64,000 nt of DNA from Naegleria gruberi (lineage: Eukaryota). The DNA lies in NCBI GenBank assembly GCA_000004985.1, contig GG738917.1; one strand, given 5' to 3'. A program made the position numbers and the translations under genes. Each line of letters starts with the position of its first letter. Within the stretch, counting starts at the first letter, position 1. The notes below the pieces were generated by a model. That model ran no database searches. It saw only the letters and a list, made by a program, of their open reading frames with translations, and was not told where the DNA came from. Positions 46,301-62,247 of this stretch are shown here, piece by piece.

Positions 46301-47468
46301 ATAACTCGGCTTGGGGAACCAGACGATGGATGGCACCTGTAAGTAATTATCAATTAATATTTCTAAAATCTCAATATAGGAGCAACGGTTGGGTAAAAGA
46401 TATGACTCTACTGTGGATATTTGGAGTTTAGGATGTATTGCATTAGAAATGGTTTTACAATATTCGTATTCGATGGTTGTAAAGTCAAGTAATTCAATGG
46501 ACAATATGGATCATGATATGAGACATGTGGACTATTATCAAGAAATTAAGAATAATCCTAACTTTTTGAATGATATACTAAGACCACTGGAGTCATACTA
46601 TGATGACAATATAATAGAATTCATTAAAAAGTGCCTTGTTATTGAACCATGGAAACGAGCCAAGGCTCAACAATTATATGGCCTACTCAATCAAGATATT
46701 AGATCAGTGGAGAACGCTGAGGTTCACTATGACCAGAGCCTTGAAGAGTTTCATCCATCTCCCTTCTCTGTGGAAAAGAAAGGATTGGAACAACTCCATG
46801 CAGCAACACCCACCGCTGCCAATATCCCTAACAAATTAATTGAAAATGCAAGTCTAAGTAACTTGGCGCTCTTACAAAACGAAAGGGATAAAGTGAATGC
46901 ATTGATAGAGAAAGTAGAAGAATCACAAAGTATTCGTAAAATATCCAATCCAGTATTTATAGAGCTTGGAGCTGATAACAAAAAATATACTAAACCAGAA
47001 CCAAAAGCAACCCACAAACTAACATCCACCATGACAATCGAAAGTAGAAATGTTCTCACAAGCCATGGATTAAGCACATTTTTCAAAGAAATTGAAGTTG
47101 AAGAAAATCATGAAAAAGAAAGCCAATCACTGAAAGACCACAATGAATCCTCATCAAGCAATAATGAAATGCTTCCAGAAGAATTTTCCACACAAGTTAA
47201 AAGAGGTCATGAAAAGTCACTCCACAAACTCTTGCAAAAATCAATATCTGATTGGACAACAAACGATGTAGGAATTTGGCTCATTTCAATTGATTTTAGC
47301 AAATTTGTTGAGAATTTTCAATCTCAGAATATTACCGGAAGAGCTTTATTGTTAATAAGAGAAGAAGATATGAAAGATGTGGGTGTAGTTAAATTGGGAG
47401 ACAAACTTTTATTGTGGAACATGATTCAGAATTTAAGACAACTTCACGATAGAAAGCAAAAGAAATAA
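43333..47468 (+). CDS. protein kinase with long N-terminal extension and C-terminal SAM domain, 2 exons (43333..46338, 46380..47468)
   Basis: Kinase: VIGSGSQGTVIKAF ... VAIKRI, a large acidic insert, HRDISTKNIFL, KIGDMGLS, W-MAP | E, DIWSLGC. The intron GTAAGT ... ATATAG (46339-46379) splits APE. C-terminal SAM: DWTTNDVGIWLISIDFSKFVENFQSQNITGRALLLIREEDMKDVGVVKLGDKLLLWNMI. Confidence 0.8.
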
Positions 47469-54809: not shown

Positions 54810-57353
54810 ATGTACACCACAATGATACCACAATCACAAACCACATCGTCATCACCATATAATGGGCATTCTCCTTCCTATTATTCTGATCAAAATAGTG
54901 GAAATTCGTCTAGTACATCAATTTCCTCCCCTTCCATGTACTCTTATTCATCTTCATCTAATACCTCTCCAACTTCGATAACACACTACCCAATGCAGCA
55001 AACAATGCAAAATAATGGAATGGTTTCTAATATTATGGATTTTTATATTCATGATGTAAACTTCTCCTTGCATACTAAAGCATCACCTGAATGCGAAATT
55101 CAATTGTACAGATTAACCAACCCAATGGATGCTCAAATTACTTTTGTCAACACTCACCCACAGTCAACACCTCCTCCACATCTCTCAACTGTTGTATATG
55201 CTTTACAAATCCAATTAGAAAAGTTCATGTCTCAAACAAATCAATGGGTACCTTGTACTAACGATACTCCTTCTTCAAACTTGTTTAAAGACTATGAAGC
55301 TAATGTTCTGTATAACCAAACTAATAATCAATCAATTACACAATTAATTCAAACAGATGGAAAGTCACTTTATATACAGTTACCACTTCAATTAGGACTT
55401 TTCAGTAACCAATATACTTCTATGACTTTCCGTTCCAAGTTAAATACAAGCAAGGAAAAACAAGGTTTTAAAAGAGGTGAAGTGGCAATCTTTAGAGTTG
55501 TTTTCACTCTTCTTAAACAACAACAACAATTGCATACCTATTTCCAAAATAAGTATGATTCTGTGCCGTTTGGAATAATTAACCATGGTAAAAACAGTAC
55601 AGCTGTGGGAATGTATAAAAACATTAAACTGAGCTCTATCCCTGGTACTGTTGAGTATAACATGCTCATCAAGCAACAACAACAACAAACTTACACACCT
55701 CAAATGCACAGTCCAAACAGCAGTATTTATACTACTCCGAACACAAGTGTTGGAACCAGTGATTATTCAAACAATTCTCCATATGGAGGAAATCAATATA
55801 GTGGATATAATGGCCAATCTATGGGTCTGGATGTAATTGATGAAAGTAGACAAATACAGGAAATGTTGGACATTCTGAATCAAGAAGAAGAAATGGCAAG
55901 ACAATATTACAACTCCAATTCTTCAAATGATAGTGGATCTGGAGATGATATGATGTACATGACTGACGACGAGGACATGTTCAGAGAAATTAACTCTATG
56001 GAAGATTACTTCTCTCAAAGTCAAGAAACAAACACAAGTCCTGGACAATCCGATCAAAATTATGAAGATATCAAATGGGAAGATGACCCTAATGAAGATT
56101 TCCATGGCTTTACAACTCAATCAGATTCAGCCAATGTATTCTTATGTGATGATGAATGTGATGGAATGGACTCTTACTATGCTGACTATTCTGCTCCATC
56201 AACGCAACCCCAAAGCGCAACTTTGTCTTCTGCTTATAGCACCCTTTTCAAAAGCTCAGTTGTTCCACAACCATTGGCTAGTAGTGCTGGTAGAAGTGTT
56301 GAAAGAAGAAGTCTTTCTAAACAAATGGATTCATTTGCACCTCCTCCTCCAGTTATGAGAAGTAAGGAATCTTCATTGTATTCATTGCCTCCACCATCAT
56401 CAGAATCAAGAAGTAGATCCTCCCTTGGTAATACTATTCAAGCATCAATTACTCCATCTATTAATCAATACGAAACATGGAGCAGTCCTATTGTTTCAGA
56501 TTCTCGCCAAGAACTCGTTCGTTCTGTTGCTTCTCAACCTTCTCAACCTCCAAGAATGACCTTTGGAGCTCACTATATAAGATCTGATGTTGCAGCAGAG
56601 CTCAAACAACCTGTAGAAGAAAAGAAAAAGAAGAAGCTTTCACTTGGAAAACTTTTCAAGAAGAAGGATGAAAAAGCTCCAAAAGAAAAAGAAAATGAAG
56701 AAAAGGCCAAAAACCCACTGTCCAATCAATCTCATGCATCATTCTTTGCAAACTTTAAACCAAGCACTATGGTTACACTTAATACAAATCAGTTACCTGA
56801 AAATGTGAGACAAGTCTCTAAAGTTACTCAAGCACAACAAAAACCAACAGAAGATTCTACAAGTACAGCCGAAGACGAACTTGCTGAAACACTTTCCAAA
56901 TTGAATATCAATAACACTGCCCTCACCACTAAATTTGATCCAAAGAAGATTACTTTCACTCTTGAAAAGAAAGGAAGCAAGGAAGTTTATGACTTGACCA
57001 ACCCTTCCAAAGAGAAGAAGTCCATTCCATCATTCAATCCAGGAGATGTTATTCAATTTTCAGTTAAGAATAATAATGAGAAAGAATTTATCGAAAAGAC
57101 AAACCTGATTGTGGGTACAACTATTCCAAGAAGGTCGATTGTCACATTCTCTGACAAGTCAACTGGCTTTACTCAAATGAAAGAAACTGTTGCCACAAGT
57201 CAAATAGTACAAATTCCAAATATAAGAGTAACTAATCCAACATGCAAGAAGAAGGCAAAGATTGTCACAATTGTATTATTTGTTAAATTTATCGAGTCCG
57301 GAAAAGAAAGAATTTTCACAACCAAGAGAAGAATAATGGTTGTTAATAAATAA
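54810..57353 (+). CDS. S/Q/N-rich low-complexity protein (847 aa), possibly nuclear/regulatory
   Basis: Single long ORF with poly-Q and poly-S tracts, preceded by a leader of over 1 kb lacking ORFs. No recognised domain. Confidence 0.5.
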   Translation: MYTTMIPQSQTTSSSPYNGHSPSYYSDQNSGNSSSTSISSPSMYSYSSSSNTSPTSITHYPMQQTMQNNGMVSNIMDFYIHDVNFSLHTKASPECEIQLYRLTNPMDAQITFVNTHPQSTPPPHLSTVVYALQIQLEKFMSQTNQWVPCTNDTPSSNLFKDYEANVLYNQTNNQSITQLIQTDGKSLYIQLPLQLGLFSNQYTSMTFRSKLNTSKEKQGFKRGEVAIFRVVFTLLKQQQQLHTYFQNKYDSVPFGIINHGKNSTAVGMYKNIKLSSIPGTVEYNMLIKQQQQQTYTPQMHSPNSSIYTTPNTSVGTSDYSNNSPYGGNQYSGYNGQSMGLDVIDESRQIQEMLDILNQEEEMARQYYNSNSSNDSGSGDDMMYMTDDEDMFREINSMEDYFSQSQETNTSPGQSDQNYEDIKWEDDPNEDFHGFTTQSDSANVFLCDDECDGMDSYYADYSAPSTQPQSATLSSAYSTLFKSSVVPQPLASSAGRSVERRSLSKQMDSFAPPPPVMRSKESSLYSLPPPSSESRSRSSLGNTIQASITPSINQYETWSSPIVSDSRQELVRSVASQPSQPPRMTFGAHYIRSDVAAELKQPVEEKKKKKLSLGKLFKKKDEKAPKEKENEEKAKNPLSNQSHASFFANFKPSTMVTLNTNQLPENVRQVSKVTQAQQKPTEDSTSTAEDELAETLSKLNINNTALTTKFDPKKITFTLEKKGSKEVYDLTNPSKEKKSIPSFNPGDVIQFSVKNNNEKEFIEKTNLIVGTTIPRRSIVTFSDKSTGFTQMKETVATSQIVQIPNIRVTNPTCKKKAKIVTIVLFVKFIESGKERIFTTKRRIMVVNK

Positions 57354-57469: not shown

Positions 57470-57541
57470 TCCCGTGTAGTCCAATGGCTAGGATACCTGG
57501 CTTTCACCCAGGAGGTCCGGGTTCAATTCCCGGCATGGGAG
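57470..57541 (+). tRNA. tRNA-Glu (TTC)
   Basis: TCCCGTGTAGTCCAATGGCTAGGATACCTGGCTTTCACCCAGGAGGTCCGGGTTCAATTCCCGGCATGGGAG. Anticodon loop CTTTCAC. Followed by a T-run. Confidence 0.9.
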
Positions 57542-57625: not shown

Positions 57626-58597
57626 TTACAAGGATGGTTTGATGATTGGCTTTGATGGCTTCTTGCATGTCTTTCTCTTGATACAAATCTTCTTCTTAAT
57701 TGACTTGCAACACTTCTTCTTTCCACCAACTAATTTGAATTTCTTACAAATCTTCTTTCCCTTTGAACGTTTCAAACACTTCTTATAATACTTCTTCTTG
57801 ATACATCTTGGAGGAATGACAATTGACTTGGCACAATACTTCTTCTTATTATATTTAACACATTTAGAAAGAGTCTTCTTGTGCTTACAGAACTTGATGG
57901 TCTTATGTTTGGCACAGAAGTATTTCTTCTTAATGAGACAACATTTCTTGACTGATTTTCTCTCCTTACAGTATTTAACCTTCTTATACTTGGCACATTT
58001 CTTTGCCCATGAAACAATCTTACACTTTTTAACATATCTACATTTGGCAACCTTCTTATTGTAGGAATCAACAGTGTACTTGTCACAAATCTTCTTCTTT
58101 TCACACTTCTTGATTGGAACCTTCTTGAATTTCTTACAGACCTTCTTATATCCATTCTTGAAACACTTGTTGATAATCTTATATTTGGCACAGAATTTCT
58201 TGAAACCCTTCTTAACACAAATCTTCTTAGTTCCATAAGAATCACAAACTTTCCAGTACTTCTTCTTGGCACAACCAACAATCTTATATGCATGCAAGAC
58301 ACACTTCTTTGTTGGCTTGCTATACTTGTCACATTTGGAATATTTCTTATGTTTGAGACATTTACCAGCCCCTACAATTGCATATTGATCACAGACCTTC
58401 TTTTGACCAACAAGTTTGTGTTTCAAACACTTCTTAATCCACTTGTGCTTTAAGCATTTTCTCTTACAATGCTTTGGCTTGTGATACTTGTCAACAACAA
58501 CAACTGGAGGTTTAGTTTGATAGCTGTCACTTGCTTGAACTGAGAGGACTGCAAGTAAAAGTAGAAGTGCAATTGAAAAGATTAGATTTGCTTTCAT
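57626..58597 (-). CDS. secreted Cys/Lys-rich repetitive protein (about 324 aa)
   Basis: Signal peptide MKANLIFSIALLLLLAVLSVQAS. The mature part is built of about 25 degenerate repeats of K-x-C-x-K-x-x-K/Y-K (e.g. KCLKHKWIKKCLKHKLVGQKKVCDQY). It has over 50 Cys, is very basic, and has no acidic stretches. Confidence 0.6.
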   Translation of the reverse strand: MKANLIFSIALLLLLAVLSVQASDSYQTKPPVVVVDKYHKPKHCKRKCLKHKWIKKCLKHKLVGQKKVCDQYAIVGAGKCLKHKKYSKCDKYSKPTKKCVLHAYKIVGCAKKKYWKVCDSYGTKKICVKKGFKKFCAKYKIINKCFKNGYKKVCKKFKKVPIKKCEKKKICDKYTVDSYNKKVAKCRYVKKCKIVSWAKKCAKYKKVKYCKERKSVKKCCLIKKKYFCAKHKTIKFCKHKKTLSKCVKYNKKKYCAKSIVIPPRCIKKKYYKKCLKRSKGKKICKKFKLVGGKKKCCKSIKKKICIKRKTCKKPSKPIIKPSL

Positions 58598-58914
58598 TTT
58601 TTGTTGGATAGGATAGTTCAACCATGGTGCTAATTTAAACCATTTCGAATAATTTTTCATTTGGAACAAGCTTTAAAAAGTTGGTTGTAAGGTTCCAAAT
58701 TTGGAAAGAAAATTGATTTCCCTAACCAAACCTTCAATGATTCAACTATCAACTCATCATTCCAAAAGTATTCTTATTATCAACAGATATGTTGAATGAT
58801 TTACAACCTGAACAATTTCAAGCACCTGTGAAAGACATTGCTAATGTACAAGATGGTTTTATTACAATATGACATATAAATATGTTAATGGTGTGTCTAC
58901 AATAATCAAATTGG

Positions 58915-61139
58915 TTAAACAATACTGTTCTTTAATTGAATGTCTCTAGAGAAGGAATACTTTTTGAATTCAGAAGTTTCTTTCAATCGTTCAAAAGTAT
59001 CATTAAGATTTAACATTAACTCAGTTGTTACAATATTTCTAATGAGGGACAATTTGACTGGTTGTTGATTTTCATAGATAGATACAAGTTCCTTCTTTGC
59101 TGGCGATGGAAGATTGACTTCATATTTTGAAAGAGATTGAAAGTAAGTTTCAAATAAATGTTTGAAAGTTTCCACTGTCACTAATACATCATCCTTCTCT
59201 TTCAGATTTTCTAATTCTTCATATAAGAGTGCATTTTCTAGTGAAAATTCCTTAGCGCAATACATTTTAAACAATTCCTTAAAAGTGTCATCTTTCATTA
59301 ATTCTTCCAATCTAGATTCTTGTTTAATATTATCTGAAACTGCGTTTCTCCTCTTTAAAATAAATCTTCTCCATTCCAATACAATTGCTGTTCCTCCCCC
59401 AAGACCGTATGTACATAAGCATGCGAGAGATGACAACACAGAGGTCACAACTTCCTCATAATCATACGTGAATTGAGAACAAATTGCAATCACAATGGTA
59501 ATTAACATGATACACAAGAAATAAATCAAATCAATTCTCAACCCAAATGGATCTTCAAAGGAAAGAAAATTCAACAGACCCTTATCCTTAATCTTTTTCC
59601 AGTTTAAGGCAATATCAATTAGAATTATCAAGGAACCAATATTGTTCCTAATAAAATTTGAACAGCATACATTATATTCAATTCGGCTTGTAAGGAGTAT
59701 TGTTTTTGATCAACTATATAAGGAATGCAAATAATCATCCAAATACAGGCATAGGTAAATCCACTCACAAATGAACCAATGATACCAAACCAACTGGATA
59801 CCAGAAACTTGTGAATCTTGATAGTAGTTTCGCTCTTTGCCTTTGAAAGAAATAGATAAAGATATCTGAGGTAGGAAAATCTTATTAGGGAAAATCCATA
59901 AATTCCAACAATGGCAGATAAAAAGCAAATACTCAATACATAATTGACAGATCGACATGAAAGGGTATATGATGTAAAGCTAATATTAAATACAATTATC
60001 AAAATAGGTAATGCATAAGGAGCTGTCAATCTTCTTTTCACAGATTTGGTTTTACAAACTGTCAACAAGGCCAAATAGAATAGAAAACCAATAATGACAG
60101 TAGCCCAAATAACAGACTCATACACAATCTCTGCGTTTCTATCAACTTCATTAGAACAAACATTGTACTCGTCACTGAATTTTTCATAACAATACATTTC
60201 ATTAATGGTCATGAATGAAGTTGACTGATTGTAATAATACTGAGATTGTAATTCATAATCTAAAACGTATTTTTCACTAGAAAATGGATAAAAGAGTGCA
60301 TTGTGTTTTCTAACTAGTGGAATGTCATTGAATTGATTCAGATAATAGGTAAGAAACTCCTTTTGATATCCTGAAATGTTACCGAAACCATTTTGATAAA
60401 ACATGTAACCAATATTTCTCTTGATTTCAAAATATTTCATTGTTGTATTGGTACCAATGAAATACTCATTCATTCTCTTGTAGAGCGAATCAAGATGATT
60501 TTCAATTATTGTTTAATTTAAATTAGTTTCATTATAATAAACTGAAACTGAAATAGGTACTTGAAATTCAGAAAGAAAAGAAAAGTCACTCCACTCATAC
60601 AATCCATTCCATTCCCTTTTCCTTGGAAGACTTTGTACGAAACTACGTAGAAAATCTTCACTGCTCATCACAAACACATCATACAAGTCAATTGGATTTC
60701 CAAAAATACAATCAATATATAAATAATTAAAAGTCTGTACACTTTCAGGAATAATCTTTGATTGGTTACCATTCTTATTGTACATTTCTAATTGACTTTT
60801 GAAAACTGTTTCTGTCAAGACCAAATCACTAACAAGTATTTCACTTTCGTCTTGATTATACACATTTTCAGCAGGAGAGTATGGATGAATAATCACAATT
60901 CGTTTACCATGCAAATCTAGTGGTGAGGATAATGACATCTTTGGTGAGAAGGAAAAGACTGTCAAGTAATTTAATGATGAAATAATGGACGGATGGAGAG
61001 ATTGTTTAATCATGGATTGTTTGATTTGAAGGAGAGAATGTTCTTGAAGTTGTGGGTGTTGTTGTGAGAAAGATCTATCTGTGTTAATGAGTGCTAGGAA
61101 TGAAAGGATCAATAGGAAATGAACAAGAGTTCGTGTCAT
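58915..61139 (-). CDS. 7-transmembrane receptor with N-terminal ectodomain and C-terminal RGS domain (7TM-RGS), at least 3 coding segments
   Basis: Segment 61139..60546: signal peptide MTRTLVHFLLILSFLALINT plus an ectodomain of about 200 aa. Segment 60473..59628: TM helices 1-5. Segment 59631..58915: TM 6-7 and an RGS domain (DTFKELFKMYCAKEFSLENALLYEELENLK ... FETYF). Segments 1 and 2 are joined by a GTACCT ... ACAAG intron. Segments 2 and 3 differ by +1 frame at about 59630, so the junction is unresolved. Confidence 0.65.
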
Positions 61140-61386: not shown

Positions 61387-61456
61387 GCGTCGATGGTTTA
61401 GTGGTAGAATACGGCGTTGCCATCGCCGTGACCCGGGTCAATTCCCGGTCGACGCA
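61387..61456 (+). tRNA. tRNA-Gly (GCC)
   Basis: Acceptor stem GCGTCGA/TCGACGC, anticodon stem-loop CGGCG-TTGCCAT-CGCCG, T-arm CCGGGTCAATTCCCGG, downstream T-run. Confidence 0.85.
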
Positions 61457-62009
61457 TTCAAAGATAACAATTTTTACTTTCTACATACAATATTATAATA
61501 TTGTATATAATATTGGACCAAAGCCTTAATATCATTTGTATCATTCATAAGCATTAGTTATTGCAATTCTTGATAAATATTCAATCCCTTTTTCTCCAAT
61601 ATTAATAAATTAGATCAAAGATTGGAAATTTCCTTTTATCCTTTCTTCTGACACATTTCTATTCAACGTTAAACATTCAGTTGTCGCAAATTTTGACAAA
61701 TAGATCGACTTCCTACATCTTGAACCTATGCTGAAATCAAGTTTAGTTTCGTTAAAGTTGAAGTTTTTATTTGAAATTAAATTAGCTCCTTCACTTCCCA
61801 ATTTTACATGTTTCATTTCATTTTGGAACTATATCTTAATAAATCAAAATTGAGATCAATCTTAAAAGGTTAATCTTTTCAGTTTCGAACACTTTGAAAG
61901 GTGTTTAACAGTTTCATCTCCTACCACTCCATTAATTCCCTCTATCAATGCTAAACCTGAAAGTAATTCATTTTTTCTTTTCTTCATGGAACTTTGATTG
62001 TTGTTGAAA

Positions 62010-62090
62010 ACGTTGTAAGGCGGTCTTGACCGAGTGGTTAAGGTGATTGACTAGAAATCAATTGGGGAGACCCGCACAGGTTCGAGTCCT
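62010..62090 (+). tRNA. tRNA-Ser (AGA), class II with long variable arm
   Basis: Acceptor stem GCGGTCT/AGATCGC, D-arm GAGTGGTTAAGG, anticodon stem-loop ATTGA-CTAGAAA-TCAAT, variable arm TGGGGAGACCCGCAC, T-arm CAGGTTCGAGTCCTG. Confidence 0.85.
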
Positions 62091-62174
62091 GTAGATCGCG
62101 ATTGTTTTTATTAAGGTATCACATGTTAAAGTGTGATATTATTTTGATTAATAAACATATTGTTATTGGGAAGA

Positions 62175-62247
62175 TCCCCCTTAGCTCAGTCGGTAGAGCG
62201 TCAGACTGTTAATCTGCAGGTCGGTGGTTCGAGCCCACCAGGGGGAG
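62175..62247 (+). tRNA. tRNA-Asn (GTT)
   Basis: Acceptor stem TCCCCCT/AGGGGGA, D-arm GCTCAGTCGGTAGAGC, anticodon loop CTGTTAA, T-arm GGTGGTTCGAGCCCACC. Confidence 0.85.

Follow-up and report, generated by a model that had tools for sequence, protein, structure and literature searches.

A secreted lysine- and cysteine-rich protein of Naegleria gruberi and its predicted disulfide-laddered beta-hairpin

The gene and its product

We analyzed a 64,000-nucleotide stretch of Naegleria gruberi nuclear DNA (contig GG738917.1 of assembly GCA_000004985.1), referred to here as the window, which has the base composition of AT-rich eukaryotic DNA (32.7% G+C). The subject of this study is a gene in the window that encodes a lysine- and cysteine-rich protein. 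The gene is a complete single-exon coding sequence on the minus strand at 57626..58597, running from an ATG at 58597 to a TAA at 57626 and comprising 323 codons plus the stop, as determined from the list of open reading frames (ORFs) and the translation. An earlier interpretation of this DNA, made from its letters and called here the sequence-only reading, had placed the ORF at exactly these positions. A second in-frame ATG is present 21 codons 5' of the assigned start (58658..58660, minus strand) and is probably not the start codon. The start at 58597 was favored because the N-termini of related proteins open at the equivalent Met-Lys followed by a hydrophobic core and because conservation ends there, an orthologous contig (described below) ceasing to align upstream.

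All parts of the protein are encoded on the minus strand. Residues 1-22 (MKANLIFSIALLLLLAVLSVQA; 58532..58597) were assigned by rule as a signal peptide with a predicted cleavage between VQA and S. The signal peptide is followed by a flexible N-terminal tail (residues 23-43; 58469..58531) that contains proline and lysine along with the D-x-Y motifs DSY at residue 24 and DKY at residue 36. The bulk of the chain would form the two arms of a beta-hairpin, a predicted N-arm of residues 44-171 with 15 cysteines (58085..58468) and a predicted C-arm of residues 186-311 with 17 cysteines (57665..58042). The arms are separated by the putative apex, residues 172-185 (DKYTVDSYNKKVAK; 58043..58084), which carries two D-x-Y motifs, DKY at 172 and DSY at 177. 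D-x-Y also occurs within the N-arm, in predicted strands (DQY 70, DKY 90 and DSY 119). Two CC doublets are present in the C-arm and the second cysteine of each, Cys220 (codon 57938..57940) and Cys297 (codon 57707..57709), has no partner in the ladder proposed below. The chain ends in a tail of residues 312-323 (KKPSKPIIKPSL; 57629..57664). This tail is not hydrophobic, making a membrane anchor or a glycosylphosphatidylinositol anchor signal unlikely. No N-glycosylation sequons were found in the protein.

The sole hydrophobic segment of the protein is its N-terminus, where the 15-residue hydropathy reached 3.0 at residue 6 as compared to 0.56 or less elsewhere, in agreement with the signal peptide called in the sequence-only reading. 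The relatives share this kind of hydrophobic N-terminus wherever they are N-terminally complete, again by rule-based assessment. The whole protein is 323 amino acids (~35 kDa) with 107 lysines (33% of residues) and 6% tyrosine. The mature protein of 301 amino acids contains 106 lysines, 6 arginines, 32 cysteines, 20 tyrosines, 7 aspartates and 2 glutamates, giving an isoelectric point of ~10.1 and a net charge of ~+103. The earlier description of the protein as extremely basic held up, the earlier count of more than 50 cysteines did not, and the acidic residues, described as essentially lacking, were rare but present.

The very high lysine and cysteine content could also fit a polycation that stays inside the cell and whose signal peptide was called in error, either a metallothionein-like metal binder or a nucleic-acid condenser of the histone H1 or protamine kind. 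We consider this highly improbable, as relatives from four species keep the hydrophobic N-terminus, C-x-C and C-x-x-C motifs are missing from the protein (0 each), and the cysteine framework is also found in relatives with only a mild basic character. With both motifs missing and a signal peptide present, assignment as metallothionein-like was rejected.

Cysteine periodicity

The spacing between successive cysteines was 9 residues in 14/31 intervals and 8-11 residues in 71% of them. Cysteine autocorrelation at lag 9 was 16 as compared to 3.2 +/- 1.6, a value matched in 0/5000 shuffles. Self-alignment defined the same 9-residue unit, with maxima of BLOSUM self-similarity at lags 9, 18 and 27 (z = 4.6, 4.0 and 3.7, respectively). 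The sequence-only reading had described short K-x-C-x-K repeats. The motif is real, with 13 exact copies and lysine at -2 and at +2 of a cysteine in 21/30 cases each, but the regularity is mainly that of the cysteines, and periodicity of the other residues was weak once the cysteines were held fixed (z 0.8-1.7). Tandem Repeats Finder detected no tandem repeat in the DNA and the direct DNA repeats were short and 63-90% identical. Only the protein is repetitive, with a cysteine period of 9 residues, and the lack of a DNA tandem array indicates that the repeat is not a recent DNA expansion.

Residues around the cysteines were unevenly distributed between the two faces that an extended strand would have. 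Positions on the same face as a cysteine (-4, -2, +2 and +4) were lysine or arginine in 70/120 cases as compared to 44/120 on the opposite face (Fisher p = 0.001), and hydrophobic or aromatic residues occupied 20/120 positions on the cysteine face and 54/120 on the other. Lysine pairs at lag 2 were depleted, with same-face neighbors rarely both lysine, and both faces were mixed.

A conserved family in Naegleria and Willaertia

Homology searches recovered three N. gruberi paralogues and a mis-modeled copy of the window gene, along with relatives in N. fowleri, N. lovaniensis and Willaertia magna and in metagenome and SRA assemblies. A HMMER scan of 1.84 billion representatives returned 18 matches only, and the family comprises about 20 relatives in all, with E-values of 1e-130 to 1e-9 (phmmer, hmmsearch) and core identities of 27-75%. 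The accessions of the family are NAEGRDRAFT_67458, _66117, _57793 and _76199 in N. gruberi, FDP41_004030 in N. fowleri, C9374_009239 in N. lovaniensis and ABK040_005866 in W. magna; their annotations read 'predicted' or 'hypothetical' only. Judged by sequence comparison, the family is restricted to vahlkampfiid amoebae, all of its named members being Naegleria or Willaertia. Neither the window protein (E <= 0.1) nor any of six relatives (E <= 1) matched a Pfam model, sequence searches of the PDB, made also with two family profiles and the long paralogue P0026, were likewise without a match, and fold searches found no resembling solved structure. The sequence-only reading could name no family for the protein, which was correct for Pfam and the PDB and overlooked this conserved, unnamed Naegleria/Willaertia family.

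The members share about 30 cysteine columns, the mirrored cysteine spacing described below and a C-terminal block, RC..K.C.K.S.G...C.K....GGK..C. As compared to the other members, the window protein is the most lysine-rich (33% lysine versus 12-25%), has two extra cysteines (220 and 297) and has a short apex. The long family members of ~700 amino acids are likewise secreted and cysteine-rich and keep the cysteine framework at 12-13% lysine. Arguments based on charge are therefore inapplicable to the family as a whole.

An orthologous contig (L002; Logan SRR32051688) aligned to the window at ~85% nucleotide identity over the coding region only, and its flanks did not align. The encoded protein was 78% identical to the window protein, with a ratio of nonsynonymous to synonymous substitution rates (dN/dS) of 0.14 (0.11 in the core) at a dS of ~1.0. 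An in-frame TGA was noted at 632-634 of L002, directly before a conserved cysteine, where the window has GGT (Gly108). The ORF continues in frame beyond it and dN/dS past the TGA was 0.09. Sequencing error, recoding or a gene that became a pseudogene very recently could each explain this TGA.

These comparisons bear on whether there is a gene at all, as a long frame can open by accident in stop-poor, AAG-rich DNA of low complexity. Such an accident would explain why a second long ORF, of 186 amino acids and rich in arginine and serine, is open in the same DNA (57772..58332, minus strand). The sequence-only reading had rightly called this ORF an artefact but placed it on the opposite strand; it lies in another frame of the same minus strand. 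It is Arg/Ser-rich because AAG-rich, stop-poor codons are being read out of frame, and the same out-of-frame artefact is found in the related contigs L001 and L002. An accidental origin of the main ORF is effectively refuted by the low dN/dS at a dS of ~1, with flanks that have diverged past alignment, and by the conservation of the cysteine columns down to ~25% identity. Codon usage also argues against it, AAG (80) being preferred over AAA (27) and TGT (29) over TGC (3). That the gene and its family are real and encode secreted proteins we regard as nearly certain.

The window gene is also present in the N. gruberi reference annotation in altered form. The reference model NAEGRDRAFT_76199 (XP_002668872; P0002) is a chimera in which an unrelated SAM/PB1 N-terminus is joined to the last 137 residues of the window gene (57629-58039, minus strand) with 98.5% identity. 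In the window this SAM/PB1 part is not found next to the gene, and all that recalls it is a SAM-like match (40% identity) at 47226-47441. By this alignment the window gene is mis-annotated in the reference, and the chimeric model is corrected here.

Further features were observed among the relatives. The long members P0016, P0020, P0025 and P0026 (NAEGRDRAFT_57793 and metagenome relatives) have an extra N-terminal region rich in cysteine and proline, spanning residues ~1-400, in which CP...C motifs recur. Pfam gave no match for P0020, and P0026 has no PDB sequence match. This region is a second uncharacterized cysteine-rich module at the open end of the predicted hairpin domain. Contigs L001 and L003 (ENA ERZ929261), both from sample ERR1078381, encode P0004, which is cut by the contig end, and P0024, which is full length with four KKVDTYKPP tail repeats. 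As P0004 and P0024, which are closely related to each other, come from this one metagenome sample, a Naegleria-like heterolobosean was evidently present in it.

Mirror-symmetric cysteines

Each of the 15 cysteines in the N-arm has a counterpart in the C-arm such that the two residue numbers sum to 353-357, from 171-186 and 165-192 at the inner end to 44-311 at the outer end. The axis of this mirror falls at residues 172-185. The irregular cysteine spacings (6, 10 and 12) recur in mirror order on the two arms, with a summed absolute difference between facing intervals (dn and dc) of 6 (permutation p = 0.00056). An inverted spacing order cannot come from duplication, and a structural constraint is therefore its natural cause.

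The mirror symmetry was also evaluated in the family. Among 10 full-length relatives, the lengths of mirrored N- and C-arm intervals correlated with r = 0.775 in register and with r <= 0.14 when shifted by one to four rungs. This test was anchored on the alignment, as the near-palindromic period makes a search for the longest mirrored ladder untrustworthy for P0006/P0021 and the long paralogues. Insertions and deletions on one arm were compensated on the other. P0006/P0021 carry 6-8 additional residues between rungs 154 and 145 and 12 between the facing rungs 201 and 210, P0011/P0025 have two residues added on both arms at one interval, and in P0003 the glycine-rich bulges are gone from both arms. 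Rungs were also lost in pairs, 165 together with 192 in P0004/P0005/P0024 and 44 together with 311 in P0003. Across the aligned rung cells, cysteine was present on both sides in 153, on one side in 12 and on neither in 5. Most length variation in the family was at the apex or the open end, the places at which a hairpin is free to lengthen, and the large insertions of the relatives were at the apex.

The two cysteines left over in the window protein were poorly conserved. The column of C220 is cysteine only in the window protein and P0001 (alignment A3), with the CC doublet also retained in the L002 orthologue, and the column of C297 is cysteine only in the window protein, with phenylalanine in L002.

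Predicted structure

AlphaFold2 with 20 sequences modeled one giant two-stranded antiparallel hairpin, with a mean predicted local distance difference test score (pLDDT) of 83.3 and 166 residues at 90 or above. The model contained two continuous strands of 76 residues each (96-171 and 186-261) along with mirrored shorter strands, 47-63, 66-74 and 80-92 in the N-arm and 265-277, 282-290 and 293-309 in the C-arm. The breaks between the modeled strands faced each other, VGQ 63-65 opposite VGG 290-292, VGAG 75-79 opposite KGKK 278-281 and KPT 93-95 opposite IPP 262-264. The apex was modeled without a strand and pLDDT was below 50 at its residues 177-182. Scores were also below 50 for residues 21-43 and low at 320-323 in the C-terminal tail. 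Taken with the pairing of the cysteines, we consider a hairpin ladder topology with up to 15 predicted disulfide rungs to be probable.

Proposed mechanism and competing interpretations

The best explanation that we can offer is that of a secreted, laddered rod. After removal of the signal peptide the chain would fold back once, with residues 44-171 and 186-311 as the antiparallel strands of one very long beta-hairpin. Fifteen Cys-Cys pairs about 9 residues apart would form the disulfide rungs and leave C220 and C297 unpaired. The product would be a stiff polycationic rod of ~40 nm, a length estimated from 128 residues at ~0.33 nm each. Lysines at -2 and +2 of the cysteines, on the face of the rung, would bind polyanionic (acidic) polymers, and the ends of the rod, at the tails and apex, would expose D-x-Y(-K-P) motifs. 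Neighboring rods may then be cross-linked through the spare cysteines and the terminal tyrosine motifs, the tyrosine part of this proposal being by analogy, and the rods would act as structural or matrix elements in the cyst wall or surface coat. In the window protein the D-x-Y motifs of the tail and apex lie outside the strands, as do those in the mirrored bulges of P0006/P0021, and the relatives have tandem (V/I)D(S/T)YKP tails at their C-termini. These features, along with the secreted, cysteine-rich long paralogues of ~700 amino acids, count circumstantially in favor of a matrix role. We put this explanation forward as a whole tentatively, as one that is plausible but stops short of probable. 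Taken separately, the matrix or wall role may be correct but is the more doubtful part.

Several observations weigh against this explanation. The argument for a matrix or wall role is built on composition and on analogy between motifs, lysine content is extreme only in the subfamily of the window protein, and no mention of the family's locus tags, expression or function was found in the literature. In the L002 orthologue a rung is lost from one side only, C44 being absent and C311 retained. The remaining points concern the model. When AlphaFold2 was first run, on 13 sequences, confidence was limited to two all-beta regions that make up about half of the chain. The predicted template modeling score was 0.36, which is expected for a long rod but leaves the global shape uncertain. 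The facing residues of the two arms were not enriched for complementary pairs, with 32 opposite-charge and 62 hydrophobic-hydrophobic pairs as compared to 35-37 and 70-75 in controls with parallel or wrong-interval pairing. The odd 9-residue period is a further difficulty, as the rungs of an ideal ribbon would switch faces from one to the next and fall by turns on hydrogen-bonded and non-hydrogen-bonded sites, and disulfides are disfavored at the hydrogen-bonded ones.

The points that concern the model would also be expected if the hairpin were a modeling artefact of a periodic sequence, in which the cysteines are joined within local C-x8-C loops or chiefly between molecules, so that the protein would be part of a cross-linked matrix of the keratin-associated or eggshell kind. 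A nearly constant period is, in addition, trivially close to palindromic. This does not account for the irregular spacings, which are themselves mirrored, or for a correlation that is specific to one register. Compensating insertions and deletions in three lineages and paired rung losses are likewise unexpected for local loops or random cross-links, and the strand breaks of the model are mirrored too. We consider an artefact quite improbable.

Naegleria feeds on bacteria, and the main rival to the matrix rod keeps the same predicted fold and gives it another use, as a giant cationic effector, secreted for antimicrobial action or prey binding, that would coat, agglutinate or permeabilize negatively charged bacterial surfaces. 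The net charge suits such a function. Except for size, the predicted architecture also matches that of the beta-hairpin antimicrobial peptides, which are cationic with an antiparallel strand pair and intramolecular disulfides, predicted in our case (definition in PMC13001179). The mature protein is, however, 301 amino acids long as compared to ~16-25 for the peptide class, its mixed faces with few lag-2 lysine pairs are not cleanly amphipathic, no processing sites stand out and members with the same cysteine framework are only 12-13% lysine. An effector function therefore appears unlikely to us. The sequence-only reading had proposed both antimicrobial-like and matrix roles and these remain two live hypotheses.

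If the ladder topology is correct, the protein would provide a first handle on the biology of the extracellular matrix or cyst wall in Naegleria, the genus to which the pathogen N. fowleri belongs. Searches of the literature on Naegleria cysteine- or lysine-rich proteins, cyst-wall proteomes and wall composition returned nothing for this family, and in the searchable literature we found no protein described as a constituent of the wall or matrix in Naegleria.

Genomic neighborhood

A tRNA-Glu(UUC) gene was identified with ARAGORN at 57470..57541 on the plus strand. The sequence-only reading had put the Cys/Lys-rich gene immediately downstream of this tRNA. The two are indeed neighbors, 84 nt apart, but they are convergent, so that the tRNA lies past the stop codon and the gene is not transcriptionally downstream of it or joined to it. 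No tRNA was found near the three related loci L001-L003, and a linkage was rejected for this reason, the proximity being incidental. The tRNA-Glu belongs to a loose cluster of four plus-strand tRNA genes within 5 kb, the others being tRNA-Gly(GCC), tRNA-Ser(AGA) and tRNA-Asn(GUU) in 61387-62247.

On the other side of the tRNA-Glu, an 847-amino acid ORF at 54810-57353 (plus strand) with low-complexity tracts of serine, asparagine and glutamine and no Pfam match ends ~270 nt from the stop of the Cys/Lys-rich gene. Two minus-strand ORFs in different frames with a 4-nt overlap occupy 58915-60473. The ORF at 59628-60473 has about five hydrophobic segments and that at 58915-59631 has one hydrophobic segment and an RGS domain (PF00615, E = 9e-9). 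Together they are probably one multi-pass-membrane RGS gene split by a short intron or a frameshift. Pfam was run on four neighboring ORFs and gave nothing relevant to the Cys/Lys-rich gene, and a tblastn search of the protein against the window detected no paralogue near the gene.

Comparison with known systems

The cyst-wall lectins (Jacob and Jessie of Entamoeba; Luke, Leo and Jonah of Acanthamoeba) were rejected as relatives, as the protein has no Pfam domain of any kind and hence no recognizable domain for binding chitin or cellulose, a result that excludes those families and not a location in the wall. Proteins with an antistasin-like domain, which have been reported to be confined to Naegleria and Willaertia (PMC12482156), resemble the window protein as secreted, cysteine-rich repeat proteins of the same genera. 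The antistasin-like domain (PF02822 / IPR004094) gave no hit in the protein or in six relatives and the accessions and motifs of the family are absent from the tables of that paper, including Table S3 (PMC12482156), and this assignment was rejected too. The likeness to cysteine-knot proteins suggested in the sequence-only reading was not borne out. In a knot, one disulfide threads a ring made by two others, but the predicted pairing is strictly nested with no crossing pairs, and the cysteine pattern and model together indicate an unknotted ladder.

In the fold searches, the stem hairpins of pore-forming toxins (anthrax protective antigen channel, 6psn; epsilon-toxin pore, 6rb9) scored at noise level. 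These hairpins are far shorter than the one predicted here, have no disulfides, are amphipathic and exist only in an oligomeric barrel. Granulin, with its stacked beta-hairpins, and the Tenebrio antifreeze beta-helix combine a regular cysteine period and a disulfide ladder with a thin beta structure that is poor in hydrophobic core. They differ from the window protein in being stacked hairpins or a solenoid, in their cysteine motifs and in being much smaller, and neither was among the fold-search matches. Plant extensins (with Val-Tyr-Lys sites), mussel foot proteins and trematode eggshell proteins are cross-linked extracellular proteins rich in lysine and tyrosine. The window protein is like them in being secreted, very basic and equipped with short Tyr-Lys-Pro motifs in flexible regions, but it has no homology to them, tyrosine is only 6% of its residues and its cysteine-ladder core has no counterpart there.

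The closest architecture is that of the beta-hairpin antimicrobial peptides and the 'cystine ladder' of the theta-defensins (protegrin, tachyplesin, gomesin, arenicin and RTD-1), in which a cationic strand pair is joined by nested cross-strand disulfides, as is predicted for the window protein. The class is defined as short, with examples of 16-21 residues in a review (PMC13001179). The window protein is cationic as is the class but is far from short, and membership was rejected. Those peptides have 16-25 residues and 1-4 disulfides ~2-4 residues apart, and are often amphipathic and arginine-rich. The window protein has no sequence relationship to them and, with 301 residues, is more than 10 times longer, with up to 15 predicted rungs 9 residues apart and lysine in place of arginine.

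Judged from the model, the family could plausibly, if still tentatively, represent an undescribed architecture, a single hairpin of ~125 residues per arm with ~15 disulfides at even spacing that would form a polycationic nanorod of ~40 nm, used as a heterolobosean extracellular building block or weapon. Should the ladder prove true, we know of no other single beta-hairpin or cystine ladder that comes near it in length. It would then also demonstrate that covalent rungs suffice to keep a protein in a defined shape despite a net charge above +100 and the near lack of a hydrophobic core, which bears on protein design and nanomaterials.

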